Below, piece by piece: positions 45,926 through 53,818 of a stretch of 64,000 nt of DNA. The stretch's first letter is position 1. Each line of letters starts with the position of its first letter. Made by a program: the position numbers and the translations under genes. Where the stretch lies: positions 256,001-320,000 of the forward strand of contig CAXXHO010000003.1 of assembly GCA_963667725.2 (NCBI GenBank). Direction: 5' to 3'. This DNA comes from Treponemataceae bacterium (GTDB lineage Bacteria > Spirochaetota > Spirochaetia > Treponematales > Rectinemataceae). The notes beneath the pieces are model-generated. The model saw only the letters and a list, made by a program, of their open reading frames with translations, searched no databases and was not told the origin of the DNA.

Positions 45926-46714
45926 ATGGAAATAGGCCGCTATGAACGCCCGAAAACCATGGATGAAGCGTATTCCCTGATTGTCAAAGAACGGGGATTG
46001 CCCATCGCGGGCGGCGCGTGGACCCACCTGACCATGAAAAAGACGGCCCTGGCCGTCGATCTGTCGGGACTGGAGCTGCGTTACATCCGCGATGCCGGCG
46101 ATGCGATGGAAATTGGGGCGATGACGACGGCGCGCGATCTGGAGACTTCTTCGCTTCTCGAAGCGGCGTTCGGGAAAGTTTTTAACGAGGCGACCAGTCA
46201 TCTCGTGGGCGTACAACTCCGCAATGTCATTACGGCCGGGGGCAGCGTTGCGGGAAAATTCGGTTTTTCCGATCTCGTCACGGTCCTGATGGCGATGAAC
46301 GCATCGCTCCGCTTTTACGGCGGAGCTATGGTGGATATATCCCGATTCCTCGCGGCACCCAAGGAAGGTCCCTTTTTCCTTGAAAAGATCGTCGTGAAAA
46401 AGGGCGCGAAGGCGGCCTTCCAAAGTCTGCGCGTCACGAAAAATGATTTCGCCGTGCTGAATGCCGGCGCCGTTTTTGCCGATGGCGGCTGGCGAATCGC
46501 CGTGGGGGCGCGGCCCGCGGCCTCCCGGCTCAGCCTCTCGGCGGCCGACGCTCTCGGGCGGGAAGGGGCCCCTACCATGGAGGCCGCGGGCCGCGCCGGC
46601 GATGCCGCGGCGGCGGAGCTCTCCTTTGGCGACGATACGCGGGGCAGCGCCGAATACAGGCGCGCCGTCTGCGCCGTTCTCGTGAAACGGGCCGTCATGG
46701 AGGCCTCCCGATGA
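45926..46714 (+). CDS. Xanthine dehydrogenase family FAD-binding subunit (YgfM/CoxM-like)
   Basis: YERPKTMDEA, IAGG, EIGAMTT, QLRN..TAGG, RGSAEYRR. Confidence 0.88.
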   Translation: MEIGRYERPKTMDEAYSLIVKERGLPIAGGAWTHLTMKKTALAVDLSGLELRYIRDAGDAMEIGAMTTARDLETSSLLEAAFGKVFNEATSHLVGVQLRNVITAGGSVAGKFGFSDLVTVLMAMNASLRFYGGAMVDISRFLAAPKEGPFFLEKIVVKKGAKAAFQSLRVTKNDFAVLNAGAVFADGGWRIAVGARPAASRLSLSAADALGREGAPTMEAAGRAGDAAAAELSFGDDTRGSAEYRRAVCAVLVKRAVMEASR

Positions 46715-47166
46715 TCATCAACATGAAGGTGAACGGCAAATCCATCGGCGTGGAATGCGATCCCGGCGATCCCCTGGTCGATGTCCTGCGCGCAGCCGGC
46801 TATACCGAAGTCAAGAAAGGCTGCGGTACGGGTAACTGCGGCCTCTGCACGGTTCTCCTCGATGGCATCCCCGTTCCCTCCTGTTCCGTCTTCGCGGGCC
46901 GCGCGGCCGACCGCGCCATAACGACGATTCGCGGCGTGGAAAAGGAAGCGACCGAACTCGCGAAATTCATCACCGCCGAAGGCGCGGAACAATGCGGTTT
47001 CTGTTCTCCCGGCTTCGCCCTCATGGTGCTGGCTATGCGGAAAGAATTGTCTTCCCCCACCGATGCCGAGATACGGCATTATCTGGCGGGCAACCTCTGC
47101 CGCTGTTCCGGCTACGAAGGCCATCTCCGCGCCGTTAGGAAGTTTCTGGAGGCCGGCCGTGAGTAA
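46711..47166 (+). CDS. Xanthine dehydrogenase family [2Fe-2S] subunit
   Basis: KKGCGTGNCGLCTV..SC; QCGFCSPG; GNLCRCSGY. Confidence 0.93.
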   Translation: MIINMKVNGKSIGVECDPGDPLVDVLRAAGYTEVKKGCGTGNCGLCTVLLDGIPVPSCSVFAGRAADRAITTIRGVEKEATELAKFITAEGAEQCGFCSPGFALMVLAMRKELSSPTDAEIRHYLAGNLCRCSGYEGHLRAVRKFLEAGRE

Positions 47167-49489
47167 GAATTTTTTCTCCGTCGGGCATAGCCTCCCCAAG
47201 ATCGACGGCCTAGGTCTCGTTACGGGCCGGCCGGCCTATACGGATGACCTCGCTCCCAGGGACGCGCTCGTCGTCAAAATCCTGCGAAGCCCGCACGCTT
47301 TCGCCAGAATCATCTCCATCGACGCGTCGAAGGCGCTCGCGTTGCCCGGCGTCGCTTGCGTCCTGACGTGGAAGGATGTCGGGCGCGTGTCCTATACCCG
47401 CGCCGGCCAGGGACATCCCGAGCCCAGTCCGCACGACAAATTCATACTGGATGAATATGTGCGCTATGTCGGGGATGAAGTCGCCATCGTCGCGGCCGAG
47501 GACGACGCGACGGCCGAGCGGGCGCTATCGCTCATCGTTACGGAGTACGAGATTCTCGAACCTGTTCTGGATTTCGAGAACGCGGCCGACAATCCCATCG
47601 TCATCCATCCCGAACCAGAAATACACGAAATGTTCCCCATCGGTTTTAAGCCTAAGCGCAATATCGCGGCCGCCTACGACATGAAAATAGGCGATGTCGA
47701 AAGGGAACTCGCCAAGAGCGATACCGTGCTGCAGAAGGCATTTTACACGCAGGCTCAATCCCATGTCGCCATGGAGCCTCATGTCGCCTACAGCTATCTC
47801 GATATCCACGGCAGGCTGAATATCTGCACGAGCACGCAGAATCCCTTCCATACGCGGCGCATTCTCGGCCAGGCGCTTTCGATGCCCCTCTCCCGGATCA
47901 GGGTGATGAAGCCGAGGATCGGCGGAGGTTTCGGCGGAAAGCAGCATATCCACGTCGAGCCCTTCGTCGCTCTCGTCACCCTGCGGACCGGCCGCGCGGC
48001 GCGCCTCGCCTTAAGCCGCAGGGAAGTGTTCGAAGCCACCTTCTGCCGGCATCAGATGCGTATCAGCATTCGTATCGGCGCCGACAAGGATGGTTCGCTC
48101 AACGTTATCGACATGAACGTGCTCTCCAACACCGGCGCGTACGGGGAACACGCGCTGACCGTCTTCATGGTGGGGGGCTCCAAGACCTTGCCGCTCTACA
48201 ACAAGACGAAAGCCGTGCACTACGGCGGAAAGGTCGTGTACACCAACAAGGTTTCCTCGGGCGCTTTCCGCGGTTACGGCGCCATCCAGGGGAATTTCGC
48301 CCTGGAGTCGATGATGGACGAACTGGCGCATGCGCTGCGTCTGGACCCGGTGGCCCTGCGCGAGAAGAATATGATCCGCGAAGGCCAGACGAGCGAGGTT
48401 TTCCGGATCATGGGCGAGGGGAGCGAAGGCATCGAGATGACGGTCGAGTCCTGCAAGCTCGATTACTGCGTCGCGCGAGGCAAGGAACTGATCGGATGGG
48501 AGCCTGGCAATTTGGCGCGGGAAGTGGCGCCGGGCAGGATCAGGGCCAAAGGCATGGCCATCGCGATGCAGGGATCGGGCATTCCTCTCGTCGATATGGG
48601 ATCGGCGACGCTCGAACTCCAGGACGGGGCTTGCTTCAAGCTGCGAATGGGCGCCACCGACCTGGGAACGGGCAGCGATACGATTCTCGCCCAGATAGCC
48701 GCTGAGGCGCTCGGTGTTCCAGTTTCCTCCATCGTCGTGTACGCGTCGGATACGGATCATACTCCTTTCGACGTAGGCGCCTACGCTTCGAGCACTACCT
48801 ATGTGTCGGGCAACGCTGTCCTCGCCGCGGCCAGGAAAATGAAGACTGTCCTGGAGGAAGCGGTGGCGGAACGTTATGCGATAAATAAAGACGAAGTGGT
48901 CTTCGACGGCGTCAATTTTCTTAGGAAAGACGGGAGCGCCCTTGTCGGTCTGGCTGAATTCAGTTTCGACACGCTCTACCACAACGGCGAGCTCATGAAA
49001 ACCCTGACTGCGACGGCTTCCTTCACCGGGGAAAAGTCGCCGCCGCCTTATATGGCCGGTTTTTCCGAAATTGAAGTGGATCTCGAGACCGGGAAAGTGG
49101 ATCTTCTGAAGTATGTCGCGGTAGTCGATTGCGGCACGACGATAAATCCCAATCTCGCTCGCATCCAGATGGAGGGCGGACTGCTCCAGGGCATCGGCAT
49201 GGCCTTGTTCGAGAATGTCAAATACAGCGGGAAGGGAAAGCTTCTCACTAACAGCCTCATGACCTATACGGTGCCTTCGCGTGAGGATGTCGGGGAGATT
49301 GTCGTGGAGTTCGCGGACAGCTACGAGCCTTCGGGACCTTTCGGCGCCAAGTCCGTGGCGGAAATCGGCATAGACACGCCGCCGGCTGCCATCGCCAACG
49401 CTATCCGGAACGCCACCGGTCTGCGCCTGGTCGAAACGCCTTTCACTCCGGAACGCGTGCTTATGGCGCTGAAGGCCGCGGCTAAATAG
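47159..49489 (+). CDS. Xanthine dehydrogenase family molybdopterin-binding subunit (XdhD-like)
   Basis: RSPHAFARI, Q.H.AMEP, GGGFGGK, AFRGYG, ASSTT, GPFGAKSVAE. Confidence 0.92.
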   Translation: MSKNFFSVGHSLPKIDGLGLVTGRPAYTDDLAPRDALVVKILRSPHAFARIISIDASKALALPGVACVLTWKDVGRVSYTRAGQGHPEPSPHDKFILDEYVRYVGDEVAIVAAEDDATAERALSLIVTEYEILEPVLDFENAADNPIVIHPEPEIHEMFPIGFKPKRNIAAAYDMKIGDVERELAKSDTVLQKAFYTQAQSHVAMEPHVAYSYLDIHGRLNICTSTQNPFHTRRILGQALSMPLSRIRVMKPRIGGGFGGKQHIHVEPFVALVTLRTGRAARLALSRREVFEATFCRHQMRISIRIGADKDGSLNVIDMNVLSNTGAYGEHALTVFMVGGSKTLPLYNKTKAVHYGGKVVYTNKVSSGAFRGYGAIQGNFALESMMDELAHALRLDPVALREKNMIREGQTSEVFRIMGEGSEGIEMTVESCKLDYCVARGKELIGWEPGNLAREVAPGRIRAKGMAIAMQGSGIPLVDMGSATLELQDGACFKLRMGATDLGTGSDTILAQIAAEALGVPVSSIVVYASDTDHTPFDVGAYASSTTYVSGNAVLAAARKMKTVLEEAVAERYAINKDEVVFDGVNFLRKDGSALVGLAEFSFDTLYHNGELMKTLTATASFTGEKSPPPYMAGFSEIEVDLETGKVDLLKYVAVVDCGTTINPNLARIQMEGGLLQGIGMALFENVKYSGKGKLLTNSLMTYTVPSREDVGEIVVEFADSYEPSGPFGAKSVAEIGIDTPPAAIANAIRNATGLRLVETPFTPERVLMALKAAAK

Positions 49490-52400
49490 CGACAACAGAT
49501 GGATCGAGGGCGGTGATCCCTGGGAGCGATAGCCGCTCCAGATATTCAAGAAAGGCGCGGGGACCCGAGGAAATATGGAGATTGTGGAAGTCTGGGGTAT
49601 CCGACTGCTTTTCTTCTTCGCTGCATACGATCGTCAGCGCGCCGCGTCGAATGGCTCTATGCAAGTCGGTCTTCTCGGCGGAAATTTTTCCAGGATTCCT
49701 GTTTTCCGAGCCAGGTATCAATTCTTCTAGTAAAGCCTGTCCTGACCATAGAATGGTCTTTGCCCCATCGAGCTTTCGAGCCAGCAATTCCTGTCCTGCC
49801 TCGCTATCCAGTTTCCCTTCCGTCGCCATGATCAGCTTGTCGGTGTAAGAGACTTTAAACGCGTCCATCATCGCCTGGGCAGCCTGCGGCGCGAAACGGG
49901 TTGCCTGTCCCCCACGATCCGCGTCCGAGCCTTCCGGGGCGATGATCGCCAGGGAATCCACCCTCGGCAGCAGGGCCGCCATGACACCGAATTGGGCCCT
50001 CGTTTCCCTGCCGGCGAAAACGGCGATGAAGGGTCTCGGCGGATTCTCCAGGAGGGTCTCTAAGATCGCCAGCTCCTTGGCCACCATTGGACCAGCGAGG
50101 CGGTGATCGACGAATTTTGGGACGCCCGTGATGCTCGCGTGACGCCGATGGCAGACGTTGAACGCGTCGTTGACATACCATCCATCGGAGAGAGCGGCGA
50201 GAGAGCGCGAAAAAGCCTCGTCATTGTCCCGCTCGCCCGTGGCGAAACGGAGATTCTCCAGAAGGTTTACGGTGCCAGGAACAATGTCTTTTTTCGTGAT
50301 GAGGAGGCCTGAAGCGGCCACGCTCGTCTTGTGAAACACAAGCTGTCTGCCAAGTTGCTGTCCAAGCGCCTTCGCGATGGGCCCGAGGCTGAAATCGCGG
50401 GAAATCTCTTCCCTGGTGAGGCGCGCGTCGAGTCCGGCGCCCGGATCGCCTAGATGGGAACAGACGATGGGTGTCCCTCCCTTGGCGAGGATCGATTCCA
50501 GCGTCGGGGCGATTTGCCGTATGCGCTGCATGCTGCTTGCCTTCCCTCGGAGGATCTCCACATTCGCGTCCACCCGCACAAGGACGAATCCTCCATTGAA
50601 GGAAACCACTTCGCCGAGAGAAGCCCTGTGGAGATTCGTCTCGCGATGGAGGCGGGTCAGCTCGGAATCGATAAGGCTCCTGACGACGAGGGCTGTCTCG
50701 GCCGCCGTCGGGCAGCGCCCGACGGCGGCGCTCACCGTGGCGAGCGGAAGGAAAAACTCGGAAATTGGAGCGATGCCCCGATATACCGCTCCGGTGTTTC
50801 CGTCGGCCGTCACGCGTTCCCCCTCGCGCAGTACGGCATCACCGGCGGCGTGGAAGATCACCAGGCCTTTTTCATAATCGATTTCCACGTCGTCGCAGCC
50901 TACGATACATGGCTTGTTCATGGACATCGCGGTAATGGCAGCGTGCGACGTCCTCCCCGGGTAGACGGTCACGATGGCGTGAGCGCCGTTCATCACGTCG
51001 AAATCCGTGGGTTTCGTGTTGTAGGCGATATAGACGACGCTTTCCCTTCTCGCGGTCGCTTCCTTGAGGCGCGCCTCGCTGAGCACGAGGGTTCCCGAAA
51101 CGACGCCGCCGTTGATCGGCACGCCGACGGTAAGCGGCGGATTCCATCGCCTCGAGAGGAAATCGGCGCGAGGCAGGGCGGCGTTCGCGTACGCCATTTC
51201 CAGTCGATCGATTCTCGACCGGTATTCGGTCAAATCGATGACGCCGCGGCCGAGAAAGTCCGTATCGGCGACGAGCTGCGCGAAGGCTCCCAGTCTGGCC
51301 GCCCTGGCCTGAAGAAAATAAAGGGCGCCGTCTTCGACCGTGAATTCCAGGTCCAGATCCTGTCGGTAATGATCGACGAGCAGCTTTTTCGCGCGTTCCA
51401 ATTCTTCGTAGATTACGGGGTCGAGCCTGGAGATGGGTTCCGTGTTGGCGCTTCCCATGACAACTTCCTCGCCCTGGGCCATCCTCTTGAATTCCCCAAA
51501 AAGCTCGTCGTCACCGGTGATGGGGTTTCGCGTAATCAGCACGCCGCTTAAGGATTTTTGGTTCAGGTTCCCGAAAGCCAGCTGCTGTATCGTCACCGCT
51601 GTCTCGGCATTGACGTTGGCCGCCAGCGTCCGTGAATAGGCGTTCACCGCTCTCGATCTTCTCGATCCATAGACGAGCCCGACGCAGCGCAAAAGCTGTT
51701 CCTCCGGATCGATGAGGAAACGTTGGCCGAGCGCCGCGGCCAGGCGCGCCTCCATTGCCTCAACCGTGCTTTCCTCTTCTTTTCCTGCCTGGCCGGAGCC
51801 CGAGTCGCCGCCCAAGCCCGCATCGCCGTCCAAGCCCGCATCGCCGTCCAAGCCACTATAGCCATCAAGGCCTGACATAAGATTCAGAGCCGACAAGCAG
51901 TTTTCCAGAAAACGGCGATAGAGCGAGGCGGTGAGATGGAGGCCTCTCCTCTTCTCCATATGAGCGCGCACTTCGGGGCTCCATCCAACATTGAGGATGG
52001 TCGCCATGACTCCGGGCATGGAGGTGGGAGCTCCCGAGCGGACCGATACGAGCAGGGGGTGCTCAGGATCGCCGAGTTTCCGTCCGCTCTGTTTCTCGAG
52101 TTCCTTCACCTCTTCGCGGATGGCGGCGGTGAGTTTTCCCTTGAGCGCTCCGTCAGTATCCCAGCCGGCAAAGAAAGGATAGCCGAGCACGAAGGCCGGA
52201 GGGACATGAAGTCCCAATCGCGCCATATCGATGATGCTGTTGCCTTTGCCGCCCAACGAGGCCCTGATCCTCTCGTCCGTTTCCTTCCATGTCGCGGCGA
52301 TGAAGGATTTCTGATCCAGGTCGAGGCCTTCTTTGCCCGGGCTCAGGTCGGCATACAGCTGCCTGTCGTCTGTCTGGCGTTCCAGCTCCCTGTCCACAGC

Positions 52401-53654
52401 CGCTGCCACTTTTTCGGTGAATTCGCTCAATACGTGTATCTGGGTGCGGCGGATGAAGTTGTTGAAGAAGCGGGTCTTTATGGGGGAAAGCTTGGATGTG
52501 GGAACCTCGTACTCTTCCAGGATTCTGTTCAGAACGCCGCTCATCGTGTCTATGATGTCAGACTGCAGATAGCGTTGCAGTTCGTTGCATATGGATCCCA
52601 GGCAGCGTTTCGCCTTGATGAAATCGTATACGGACGATTCGCGAAGTTCGTCGATTTCCGCCTGATGGGTTTCGACATCGCCTATCGCGAGCCCCTTTAT
52701 GCTGGAGATATTGAGCAGTTCGCGCATCACCGCCAGCGTGTCCCTGAGGTTGCGGGGAGTGACCTCCGCGAAGTGGTTGTTTGTCAGATCGTTCGCGAGC
52801 AGGAAGACGAGCCTGCCCAGCGACAGGTCCAGAAGCAGAAAATCGTAGAGGCTTATCCGCGATTCGTGGAATGATTCCTTGAGGTAATGCTTGAAGCTCG
52901 CCAGGCGCTTCAGGAGATCGAGTTCGAGATAGGGCTTGGCCAGGTTGTCCGGCGTGAGCATTTCGAGAAAACCCTTCACTTCGGCCTTGAGGAAGCATCG
53001 TTCGAAAAGCCCCAGGTTCTGCTCGAGCTGTCGCTTAACGGACGCGAGATTTCCCTTCTCGTAATCCCATAGGTAATTCAATCGTTCCAGAAGATCTTCG
53101 GCGAGTTCGATGAAACGGTTCCCCTCGTTTTCGGCGGAAAAGAACCGCGGCAAAGCCACGTAACCCGCCTTTACCATCGGTTCGGCATTTCCCTGCTTCG
53201 CCAACTGAAGGTAAGGCAGCAGAAAGCAATGAATGATCCTAGGCGACAGGCGCCGGTGGACTTCTTTACGCAGGTCCCCCGCGAAACCCAGCAGAGGATC
53301 GTCCTCTCGGCGCTCCTCTTCGAATGCTTCGGCCGTCGCTCGGATCTGTTCTATCATTTCCTCGGCGTCCTGGCGCAGCGGCAGTTTCTTGAGCACTTCG
53401 CGGGCATAATAGATGAAGCTCGCCGACGGCTGGCGTACCGCCGCGAGCATTTCCCTCGCTTCCCGTTCTATGTCGGCGTAAAGGGTTTCGATATCGCCTT
53501 TCTTCTGCCTCATGTCGGGAACGCATTCATCCTGTCCCAGGAGGCGGAGATTGATAAGGAGTTCTATTAGAAGCTTGATCCGCTCCGTTTCGCCGGAGAC
53601 TGAGCGGACAAGACGCAGGTGGGAAATTATGCTTTCCCATGTGTTGAGTCGCAG
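49482..53654 (-). CDS. Multidomain PPDK-family dikinase: unknown helical N-domain, PPDK ATP-grasp, phospho-His swivel domain and phosphoglycerate-kinase-like C-terminal domain; no PEP/pyruvate domain (start uncertain, ORF open from 53720)
   Basis: LGGKG, LLVSVRSGA..SMPG, TRNPITG, AQGEEVV.G, EFTVEDG.LYFLQAR, RTSHAAI; then RVDANV, SHLGDP, LLENLRF, YVNDAF..HRRHAS, HISSG..FLEYLE...PGI.AL. Confidence 0.85.
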   Translation of the reverse strand: MRLNTWESIISHLRLVRSVSGETERIKLLIELLINLRLLGQDECVPDMRQKKGDIETLYADIEREAREMLAAVRQPSASFIYYAREVLKKLPLRQDAEEMIEQIRATAEAFEEERREDDPLLGFAGDLRKEVHRRLSPRIIHCFLLPYLQLAKQGNAEPMVKAGYVALPRFFSAENEGNRFIELAEDLLERLNYLWDYEKGNLASVKRQLEQNLGLFERCFLKAEVKGFLEMLTPDNLAKPYLELDLLKRLASFKHYLKESFHESRISLYDFLLLDLSLGRLVFLLANDLTNNHFAEVTPRNLRDTLAVMRELLNISSIKGLAIGDVETHQAEIDELRESSVYDFIKAKRCLGSICNELQRYLQSDIIDTMSGVLNRILEEYEVPTSKLSPIKTRFFNNFIRRTQIHVLSEFTEKVAAAVDRELERQTDDRQLYADLSPGKEGLDLDQKSFIAATWKETDERIRASLGGKGNSIIDMARLGLHVPPAFVLGYPFFAGWDTDGALKGKLTAAIREEVKELEKQSGRKLGDPEHPLLVSVRSGAPTSMPGVMATILNVGWSPEVRAHMEKRRGLHLTASLYRRFLENCLSALNLMSGLDGYSGLDGDAGLDGDAGLGGDSGSGQAGKEEESTVEAMEARLAAALGQRFLIDPEEQLLRCVGLVYGSRRSRAVNAYSRTLAANVNAETAVTIQQLAFGNLNQKSLSGVLITRNPITGDDELFGEFKRMAQGEEVVMGSANTEPISRLDPVIYEELERAKKLLVDHYRQDLDLEFTVEDGALYFLQARAARLGAFAQLVADTDFLGRGVIDLTEYRSRIDRLEMAYANAALPRADFLSRRWNPPLTVGVPINGGVVSGTLVLSEARLKEATARRESVVYIAYNTKPTDFDVMNGAHAIVTVYPGRTSHAAITAMSMNKPCIVGCDDVEIDYEKGLVIFHAAGDAVLREGERVTADGNTGAVYRGIAPISEFFLPLATVSAAVGRCPTAAETALVVRSLIDSELTRLHRETNLHRASLGEVVSFNGGFVLVRVDANVEILRGKASSMQRIRQIAPTLESILAKGGTPIVCSHLGDPGAGLDARLTREEISRDFSLGPIAKALGQQLGRQLVFHKTSVAASGLLITKKDIVPGTVNLLENLRFATGERDNDEAFSRSLAALSDGWYVNDAFNVCHRRHASITGVPKFVDHRLAGPMVAKELAILETLLENPPRPFIAVFAGRETRAQFGVMAALLPRVDSLAIIAPEGSDADRGGQATRFAPQAAQAMMDAFKVSYTDKLIMATEGKLDSEAGQELLARKLDGAKTILWSGQALLEELIPGSENRNPGKISAEKTDLHRAIRRGALTIVCSEEEKQSDTPDFHNLHISSGPRAFLEYLERLSLPGITALDPSVVAI
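51805..51858. repeat. In-frame 18-bp tandem repeat (3 copies plus 1 degenerate) encoding GLDGDA-like units
   Basis: TCGCCG(C/T)CCAAGCC(CGC/ACT)A x3; protein GLDGYS-GLDGDA-GLDGDA-GLGGDS. Confidence 0.8.
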
Positions 53655-53673
53655 AGCGTCGCCCCCTGCTTTC

Positions 53674-53702
53674 ACTATGGAGGAAGGGCTTGCCCTTGTC
53701 AA
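53674..53702 (-). promoter_or_regulatory. sigma70-type promoter of the dikinase-PGK gene
   Basis: Minus strand TTGACA-N17-CATAGT. Confidence 0.55.
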
Positions 53703-53818
53703 CAATTGGTGTGTAAGCAAAGCCAGGAGGGTAAATCAAGGATTCAGTTAAGCCCTTCGAGAGAGAATTTCCTGCGATGCTTACGGCACAGTTTTTGCCG
53801 CCGACGCTTTCCTTGCCT

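Follow-up and report, generated by a model that had tools for sequence, protein, structure and literature searches.

Domain architecture of the fusion protein

The window analysed here is a 64,000-nucleotide stretch of contig CAXXHO010000003.1 from a Treponemataceae bacterium (GCA_963667725.2, positions 256,001 to 320,000), and it carries on its minus strand a gene for a single-chain protein, a candidate glucan dikinase, in which an all-helical N-terminal domain is followed by a PPDK-type ATP-grasp domain, a phospho-His swivel domain and a module with the fold of phosphoglycerate kinase (PGK). A preliminary description of this DNA had reported the last three parts as one uninterrupted open reading frame (ORF), and the minus-strand frame is indeed open throughout 49482..53720, with 1412 codons counted from the first TTG. 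The features of the gene are listed below, where 3-PG denotes 3-phosphoglycerate.

49482..53654, minus strand: whole gene, 1390 aa from a CTG start, corresponding to residues 23-1412 of frame P0001
52356..53651, minus strand: all-helical N-terminal domain, residues 24-455, putative acceptor-binding and His-docking domain, remotely homologous to the central domain of GWD/PWD
53235..53276, minus strand: motif at residues 149-162, DLRKEVHRRLSPRI, in which H155 and P160 align with an invariant His and Pro of GWD/PWD
52443..52469, minus strand: motif at residues 418-426, FFNNFIRRT, in which R424 takes the place of R904 and N420 that of E900 in StGWD1 (9HA9 alignment)
51141..52295, minus strand: PPDK-type ATP-grasp domain, residues 476-860, with GGKG, SVRSG, SMPG, xRF, QGE, DxEFT and LQxR kept
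51797..51854, plus strand: 18-bp tandem repeat, 3.2 copies, encoding a low-confidence Gly/Asp loop within the ATP-grasp domain
50751..51140, minus strand: phospho-His swivel domain, residues 861-990, from Pfam and alignment
50945-50943, minus strand: codon of the catalytic His926 in PGRTSHAA, invariant
50613..50750, minus strand: helical linker, residues 991-1036, with 0/46 columns at least 95% conserved
49500..50612, minus strand: PGK-fold module, residues 1037-1407, 3-PG pocket kept and nucleotide/transfer site lost

Pfam places PPDK_N at residues 527-760 (E 1e-20), PEP-utilizers at 893-977 (E 2e-17) and PGK (PF00162) at 1040-1259 (E 3e-51), the last covering profile positions 5-212 of 379 only, and gives no match at E<=0.1 in the window protein to PEP-utilizers_C (PF02896), the phosphoenolpyruvate (PEP)/pyruvate barrel. 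This is the domain content anticipated in the preliminary description, and every sequence motif named there was found in the protein. Pfam and motif alignment agree with it on an intact ATP-grasp domain and a swivel domain with His926, and the PGK fold from about residue 1040 is confirmed both by Pfam and by an AlphaFold model of residues 471-1412 (pLDDT 83.8), which matches structures of PPDK (E 1e-43) and PGK (E 1e-20). GGKG, RSG, QGE, LQxR, the xRF arginine and TSHAA are all retained in 57/57 fusion cores; from work on PPDK we take the conserved core residues to bind ATP, Mg and inorganic phosphate (Pi), the xRF arginine being assigned to Pi. The copy number of the 18-bp repeat (51797-51854) differs between strains, run X5 having one copy fewer with the frame intact.

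The fusion resembles PPDK (EC 2.7.9.1; TIGR01828; PDB 1KBL, 5JVN) in that the ATP-grasp and His domains stand in the same order, at ~33% identity and with the motifs and Thr-Ser-His kept, whereas it lacks the PEP/pyruvate barrel and forms its own long-branched group apart from the PPDKs in a quick tree; the TIGR01828 score is 327 bits against a cut-off of 843. Rifampin phosphotransferase and related dikinases (NF041857) likewise combine an ATP-grasp domain and a His swivel with an exchangeable acceptor domain, as outlined in PMC13553574, but their acceptor domain is unrelated and their domain order differs, and the window protein has no match to NF041857 at E<=0.1.

Distribution of the family

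The architecture recurs in other genomes, as the preliminary description had envisaged. All three Pfam families are present in 61/74 protein matches (61 clusters, 39-93% identity), and the family is encoded at 66/79 loci from named genomes, with the labels Spirochaetota, Riflebacteria, Elusimicrobia, Wallbacteria and, for two, Myxococcota. A single contig of run X2, which may be the source of this DNA, covers the entire stretch and spans the gene, and the groundwater run X5, from another study, covers 30/30 bins in pieces. Since the same architecture is found in these proteins, loci and read runs, the junction is not the product of misassembly, a risk that had been raised for it. Members carry the database names PGK, PPDK or hypothetical only, and none of the publications listed in literature searches dealt with the fusion, though supplementary files could contain alignments with GWD relatives from bacteria.

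In the host's order the N-terminal domain was found, counting rows with E<1e-40, in 23/301 genomes (16/54 of the host's own family, 7/35 of family f3 and 0/212 of three other families), and 22 of these 23 genomes hold a second, PPDK-type match. It was present in 21/81 genomes of the phylum of G304 and in 1/151 of the phylum of G305. A canonical pgk lies separate from the fusion in 6/6 genomes tested (the host and 5 other carriers) and the host has a separate canonical ppdK as well, both ordinary enzymes whose presence was at issue being thus encoded elsewhere in its genome. The host's canonical PPDK (G000:C3:1021608-1024850) has a C-terminal tail of ~150 residues that is Lys/Ala/Pro-rich and histone-tail-like.

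A route to glycogen was detected in 30/31 fusion-bearing genomes tested, by way of glycogen synthase in 27 and glgE in 3. The Riflebacteria-type genomes G304, G306 and G308 are without a clear GT5/GT3 glycogen synthase, and their glgE adjoins a weak glycosyltransferase match, which suggests a GlgM-GlgE route.

The N-terminal helical domain

The N-terminal domain was passed over in the preliminary description, yet it is conserved to the same degree as the ATP-grasp domain, with 79/451 columns at least 95% identical versus 83/364. No Pfam or NCBIfam family covers residues 24-455. The domain was modelled as ~435 aa, all-helical, with 21 helices (pLDDT 88.6). Searching 1.84 billion representatives returned 23 matches, of which four were distant (24-28% identity), and in each of these four the helical domain precedes PPDK_N and no PGK is present. 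Extending the search from these four yielded 19 proteins of ~1090 aa, labelled Poribacteria, Abyssubacteria and similar, which consist of the helical domain, PPDK_N and PEP-utilizers only and end 87-110 residues past the His, their completeness being judged from uniform length and not from DNA. Members of the PGK-less family are P0096-P0114, P0116, P0119 and P0089. The 19 relatives demonstrate that helical domain, ATP-grasp domain and His domain form a unit that exists without PGK, and because they have no other candidate acceptor domain either, the acceptor site is likely to be the N-terminal helical domain rather than the PGK module.

Remote homologues were sought among glucan, water dikinases (GWD) and phosphoglucan, water dikinases (PWD). 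A short sequence motif retrieved 124 metagenome loci, and of the central domains in 132 motif-bearing ORFs those that covered the full region were kept, 26 from GWD and 21 from PWD. The long ORFs scanned had GWD1_pHisD and PPDK_N in 16/16 cases, and L177 matched the solved StGWD1 central domain, PDB 9HA9, at E 1e-128, which places these rows in the family of that domain. HHalign of an N-domain profile (54 fusion and 4 distant rows) against GWD+PWD gave a probability of 95.3, E 2.4e-8 and a score of 68.8 over 346 collinear columns, end to end, compared with scores of 22.8 for the reversed control and 29.1 for the best of 30 block shuffles. With only the region after the selecting motif the probability was 93.3 (E 2.7e-7). 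The PGK-less proteins form a bridge, since their N-domains align with those of the fusion at 99.3 (E 1e-20) and with GWD+PWD at 97.8 (E 9e-13). A GWD+PWD hidden Markov model (HMM) ranked family members in all of its top 25 matches, above 21,797 decoy stretches (21,854 sequences), and matched 19/19 of the new PGK-less proteins with E values between 2e-4 and 8e-9; in the host genome the window protein ranked first among stretches, but at E 0.17.

Conserved GWD/PWD positions have their aligned counterparts in R107, R127, H155, P160, K277, D298-L299, F418 and R424 and in the LDL motif, and R424 is found in 53/54 rows, the remaining row being a gap. PMC13553574 describes the central domain of StGWD1 (483-926) as 444 aa and 20 helices with no clear PDB equivalent, and the His domain as resting on it; E900 and R904 there face the catalytic His at the docking helix and are proposed to assist transfer. 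These profile comparisons link the N-terminal domain, at a remote level, to the central domain of GWD/PWD.

What the fusion has in common with GWD/PWD is a helical domain of about the same length and of remote homology, in which the His, Pro, LDL and Arg904 positions line up, and the chemistry of a phospho-His swivel with an ATP-grasp domain. The order is CBM-central-His-ATP in GWD/PWD (CBM, carbohydrate-binding module) and central-ATP-His-PGK in the fusion. The latter has no CBM45/CBM20, its His domain is of the PEP-utilizers type and not GWD1_pHisD (PF22973, for which no Pfam match is listed in the window protein), its ATP-grasp domain is PPDK-type, E900/E901 are replaced by Asn, and the PGK module is additional. 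The fusion would work like GWD/PWD, yet by its order, its His-domain type and its lack of a CBM it is no member of either.

GWD/PWD genes without a Pfam CBM exist too, and L118 adjoins an isoamylase-type gene. On intronless contigs GWD/PWD-type genes occur together with glycogen synthase, branching or debranching genes at L106, L118, L120, L128, L134 and L166 (6 scanned loci), and also at L170. Tandem, tightly packed, intronless GWD-type and PWD-type genes were observed at L105, L106, L117/L118, L120, L128, L166/L167, L134 and L154; such tandem loci adjoin glycogen synthase, GlgB, GH57, isoamylase or debranching genes, and L105 adjoins dnaB. They are apparently bacterial glucan-phosphorylation operons. 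In several PWD-type proteins a TIM barrel resembling xylose isomerase precedes the rest, and at L180:1061-2281 the gene immediately upstream of one for a PWD-type protein encodes a dual-specificity phosphatase domain, which makes it a candidate for a partner glucan phosphatase.

The PGK module

The 3-PG pocket is retained in the window protein (D1051, N1053, R1066, H1089, R1158 and R1192), while the nucleotide/transfer site is lost, with E1239 at the position of K215, Q1243 at that of K219, and S1326, C1366, P1387 and R1388. We take K215, K219 and R38 to be the residues by which PGK stabilises the phosphate during transfer, and GGxK, GGG, WNGP, GxFE, GGGD and STGGG to be the motifs of its nucleotide and transfer site. 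The 3-PG basic patch of PGK is given as D23, N25, H62, R65, R122 and R170 in PMC7729029. The window module keeps 5/6 of it, in line with the earlier statement that most basic-patch residues remain; position 65 is Asp, the same as in the host's canonical PGK. The change of SHLGRP to SHLGDP that the preliminary description remarked on does not indicate decay: SHLGDP is found in 6/32 canonical PGKs including that of the host, and position 65 is acidic in these and in 61/61 fused modules. The host enzyme (G000:C3:938757-940019, L001) combines SHLGDP with a lysine-rich insertion, a pairing that recurs in 5 other spirochaete PGKs among the 32 examined. The fused modules have a different insertion, with a conserved RE, in that place.

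Two clades differ markedly. Spirochaete-type members have D23, N25, H62 and R122 in 27/27 and R170 in 26/26; K215 is acidic in 25/26, K219 is Gln in 23/25, R38 is Ser in 4/27 and the glycine loops are gone, with G166 replaced by N in 26/26 and GGG by G-P-R/S. Their columns of at least 95% conservation number 56/180 in the 3-PG half versus 31/193 in the nucleotide half. In the 30 Riflebacteria/Elusimicrobia-type members every nucleotide-site motif is intact in 28-30 of the rows covering each site, and conservation is 0.89 in the C-domain versus 0.83 in the N-domain of the module. The eroded nucleotide domain of the preliminary description therefore holds for the window protein and the spirochaete clade and fails for the family as a whole. 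Separate partial losses were seen in two Myxococcota-labelled and two Elusimicrobium-type members. In a FastTree phylogeny a single branch separated 31 canonical PGKs from the 23 fused modules, the spirochaete modules being long-branched. As the canonical PGKs have the full site, we infer that the intact state is ancestral and its loss derived.

The module shares with PGK (EC 2.7.2.3, PF00162) the two-lobed fold and the 3-PG pocket residues, and differs from it in being joined to a dikinase and in having lost the nucleotide site in one clade while keeping it in another. The fusion is neither a PPDK, as it has no barrel, nor a working PGK. Inactive PGK domains within fusions have a precedent in the dead and multidomain PGKs of kinetoplastids, as covered in PMC7729029.

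Gene start and flanking genes

The gene probably starts at CTG 53654, where GGGGG precedes the codon by 7 nt and the start agrees with that of 4/14 homologues inspected; GTG at 53675 is an alternative. The sites upstream are consensus matches only, and promoter-like sites numbered 3 against 2.7 expected by chance.

53702-53674, minus strand: promoter-like TTGACA-17-CATAGT
53666-53662, minus strand: ribosome-binding-like GGGGG
53662..53702, minus strand: region of the promoter-like and ribosome-binding-like matches

A three-gene cluster for a xanthine-dehydrogenase-type molybdoenzyme (45926-49489 of the window) converges on the fusion gene, and their stop codons overlap at 49482-49489. In two Elusimicrobium-type loci, L049:4441-5400 and L050, a GT8 glycosyltransferase gene directly follows the fusion; GT8 includes glycogenin and also many enzymes of lipopolysaccharide synthesis.

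Proposed function and alternatives

Directly established are the domain content, its conservation, the remote homology, the PGK-less relatives and the clade-specific loss of the PGK nucleotide site. The interpretation that we favour, at a little under an even chance, is a dikinase with a swivelling histidine whose target is an alpha-glucan, either glycogen or maltodextrin, and whose activity responds to phosphoglycerate. As the intact PPDK motifs suggest, the ATP-grasp domain would bind ATP and place its beta-phosphate onto His926 with release of AMP. The His domain would then swing to the N-terminal helical domain, where R424 and the patch around H155 would face the acceptor hydroxyl, docking and substrate both being presumed; this second step is modelled on the proposal for the GWD central domain, to which the homology is remote. 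The gamma-phosphate may go to Pi, giving pyrophosphate (PPi), rather than to water, a possibility since the core is PPDK-type. The PGK module would be an accessory part. In the Riflebacteria/Elusimicrobia-type clade its sequence is that of a competent kinase; in the spirochaetes it would be a catalytically dead binder of 3-PG or 1,3-bisphosphoglycerate (1,3-BPG) and would in this way tie the activity to the flux through glycolysis. Of the two options in the preliminary description, the one that fits best is the dikinase that acts on another substrate while a dead PGK senses 3-PG; its missing acceptor domain would be the GWD/PWD-type helical domain.

It must be noted that a number of observations weigh against a glucan dikinase of this kind. 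The protein begins at the helical domain and has no CBM45 or CBM20 by Pfam; in PMC13553574, StGWD1 without CBM45_1 loses its stimulation by maltodextrin, and glucan binding by the GWD central domain is not itself demonstrated directly. The homology is distant (~17% identity) and requires the PGK-less bridge, because with fusion-only profiles the probability is no more than 2.4-17.9% against GWD+PWD and 0.4% against GWD or PWD singly. The region before the selecting motif gave no significant HHalign score against GWD+PWD, and the reciprocal HMM was weak, with 9/54 GWD/PWD proteins above the first decoy and 5 with the motif masked. At the position of E900, the presumed catalytic acid of GWD, Asn stands in 53/54 rows and Asp in most PGK-less relatives, and V989 and L990, the hydrophobic residues by which the GWD His domain docks, are Arg and Thr here. 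Fold searches with the 447-residue hinged helical model had neither 9HA9 nor 9QVI among the 50 matches listed, but the library searched may not contain these structures, and we count the result neither way. The neighbourhood is not conserved, the commonest neighbour cluster occurring at 8/67 loci, and glycogen synthase, phosphorylase, branching and CBM families were found in 0/68 of the neighbour proteins that were scanned, a set of cluster representatives rather than every ORF. Genome G521 has neither the glycogen synthase nor the glgE route, and glycogen synthase is also present in 12/14 control genomes and hence does not discriminate.

Several of these points serve an unlikely competitor, in which the architecture is the same, with the helical domain as acceptor site and PGK as sensor, and the acceptor is another sugar, a sugar phosphate, a polymer or a protein hydroxyl. 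The absence of a CBM and of glycogen-gene neighbours, the Asn at E900 and the low identity to GWD/PWD are all compatible with it, and E131, D141, R151, K152, E153 and R156 make up an invariant basic/acidic patch in the fusion that GWD does not share. Such an acceptor fits less well with the sole characterised carriers of the helical domain, which according to PMC13553574 act on alpha-glucans, and with the intronless GWD/PWD-type genes that adjoin glycogen synthase, branching and debranching genes at 6 scanned loci.

The other option of the preliminary description was a phosphoglycerate dikinase (3-PG + ATP + Pi -> 1,3-BPG + AMP + PPi, or the reverse), in which PGK is the acceptor and phospho-His926 replaces its ADP site. 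The module does occupy the place of the PEP barrel of PPDK, the spirochaete-type members keep D23, N25, H62, R122 and R170 throughout, the exchange of G166 for N and of GGG for G-P-R/S show a site remodelled yet still under selection, and the xRF arginine, with its presumed role in Pi binding, is kept in 57/57 PPDK-type fusion cores. Yet a conserved 430-aa N-domain would be left without a task, 19 relatives are entirely without PGK, K215, K219 and R38 are lost or reversed in the clade (R38 Ser in 4/27, K215 acidic in 25/26), and canonical pgk is present in all six genomes tested. Moreover, as 30 members of the other clade keep the full ADP/ATP site, phospho-His did not replace that site at the origin of the fusion. 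This option is poorly supported and we consider it improbable.

A similarly improbable explanation is that PGK was fused as a working kinase supplying ATP locally from 1,3-BPG, and that the spirochaete module is a decaying or structural remnant that senses nothing. The full motif set of the Riflebacteria/Elusimicrobia-type members with their better conserved C-domain, the separate partial losses in the Myxococcota-labelled and Elusimicrobium-type members and the long branches of the spirochaete modules accord with this, whereas the stronger conservation of the 3-PG half would not be expected of a neutral remnant, and the clade's N-domain with a cleanly deleted PGK was not seen among the 61 clusters, a comparison limited by length. 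All other explanations together are very improbable.

The glucan dikinase favoured here can be extended to a wider proposal, which we regard as rather unlikely in its full form: an alpha-glucan dikinase that was put together in bacteria independently of plant GWD, in which a PPDK core carries a GWD-type acceptor domain and may use Pi/PPi reversibly in place of water, and in which a PGK module, passing from working kinase (Riflebacteria, Elusimicrobia) to phosphoglycerate sensor (spirochaetes), links the enzyme to glycolysis. In bioRxiv 10.64898/2026.09.25.754361 the phosphorylation of glucans by dikinases is treated as a feature of eukaryotes that make starch, and a figure legend of a 2026 review (PMC13666283) gives the mechanism by which glycogen is phosphorylated as unknown. 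If the proposal is true, bacterial glycogen phosphorylation could be tested directly on a single polypeptide that combines a GWD acceptor domain with a built-in metabolite sensor and lacks a CBM. Such an enzyme would also offer a simpler model for the working of the GWD central domain, and enzymatic starch modification could draw on a glucan dikinase whose core is of another type. Should the acceptor prove to be other than glucan, the fusion would still perform a new dikinase reaction. On the wider proposal the GWD central domain would be an old bacterial module, a kinase turning into a sensor would be visible across living clades, and anaerobic bacteria would phosphorylate their storage glucan under metabolic control.

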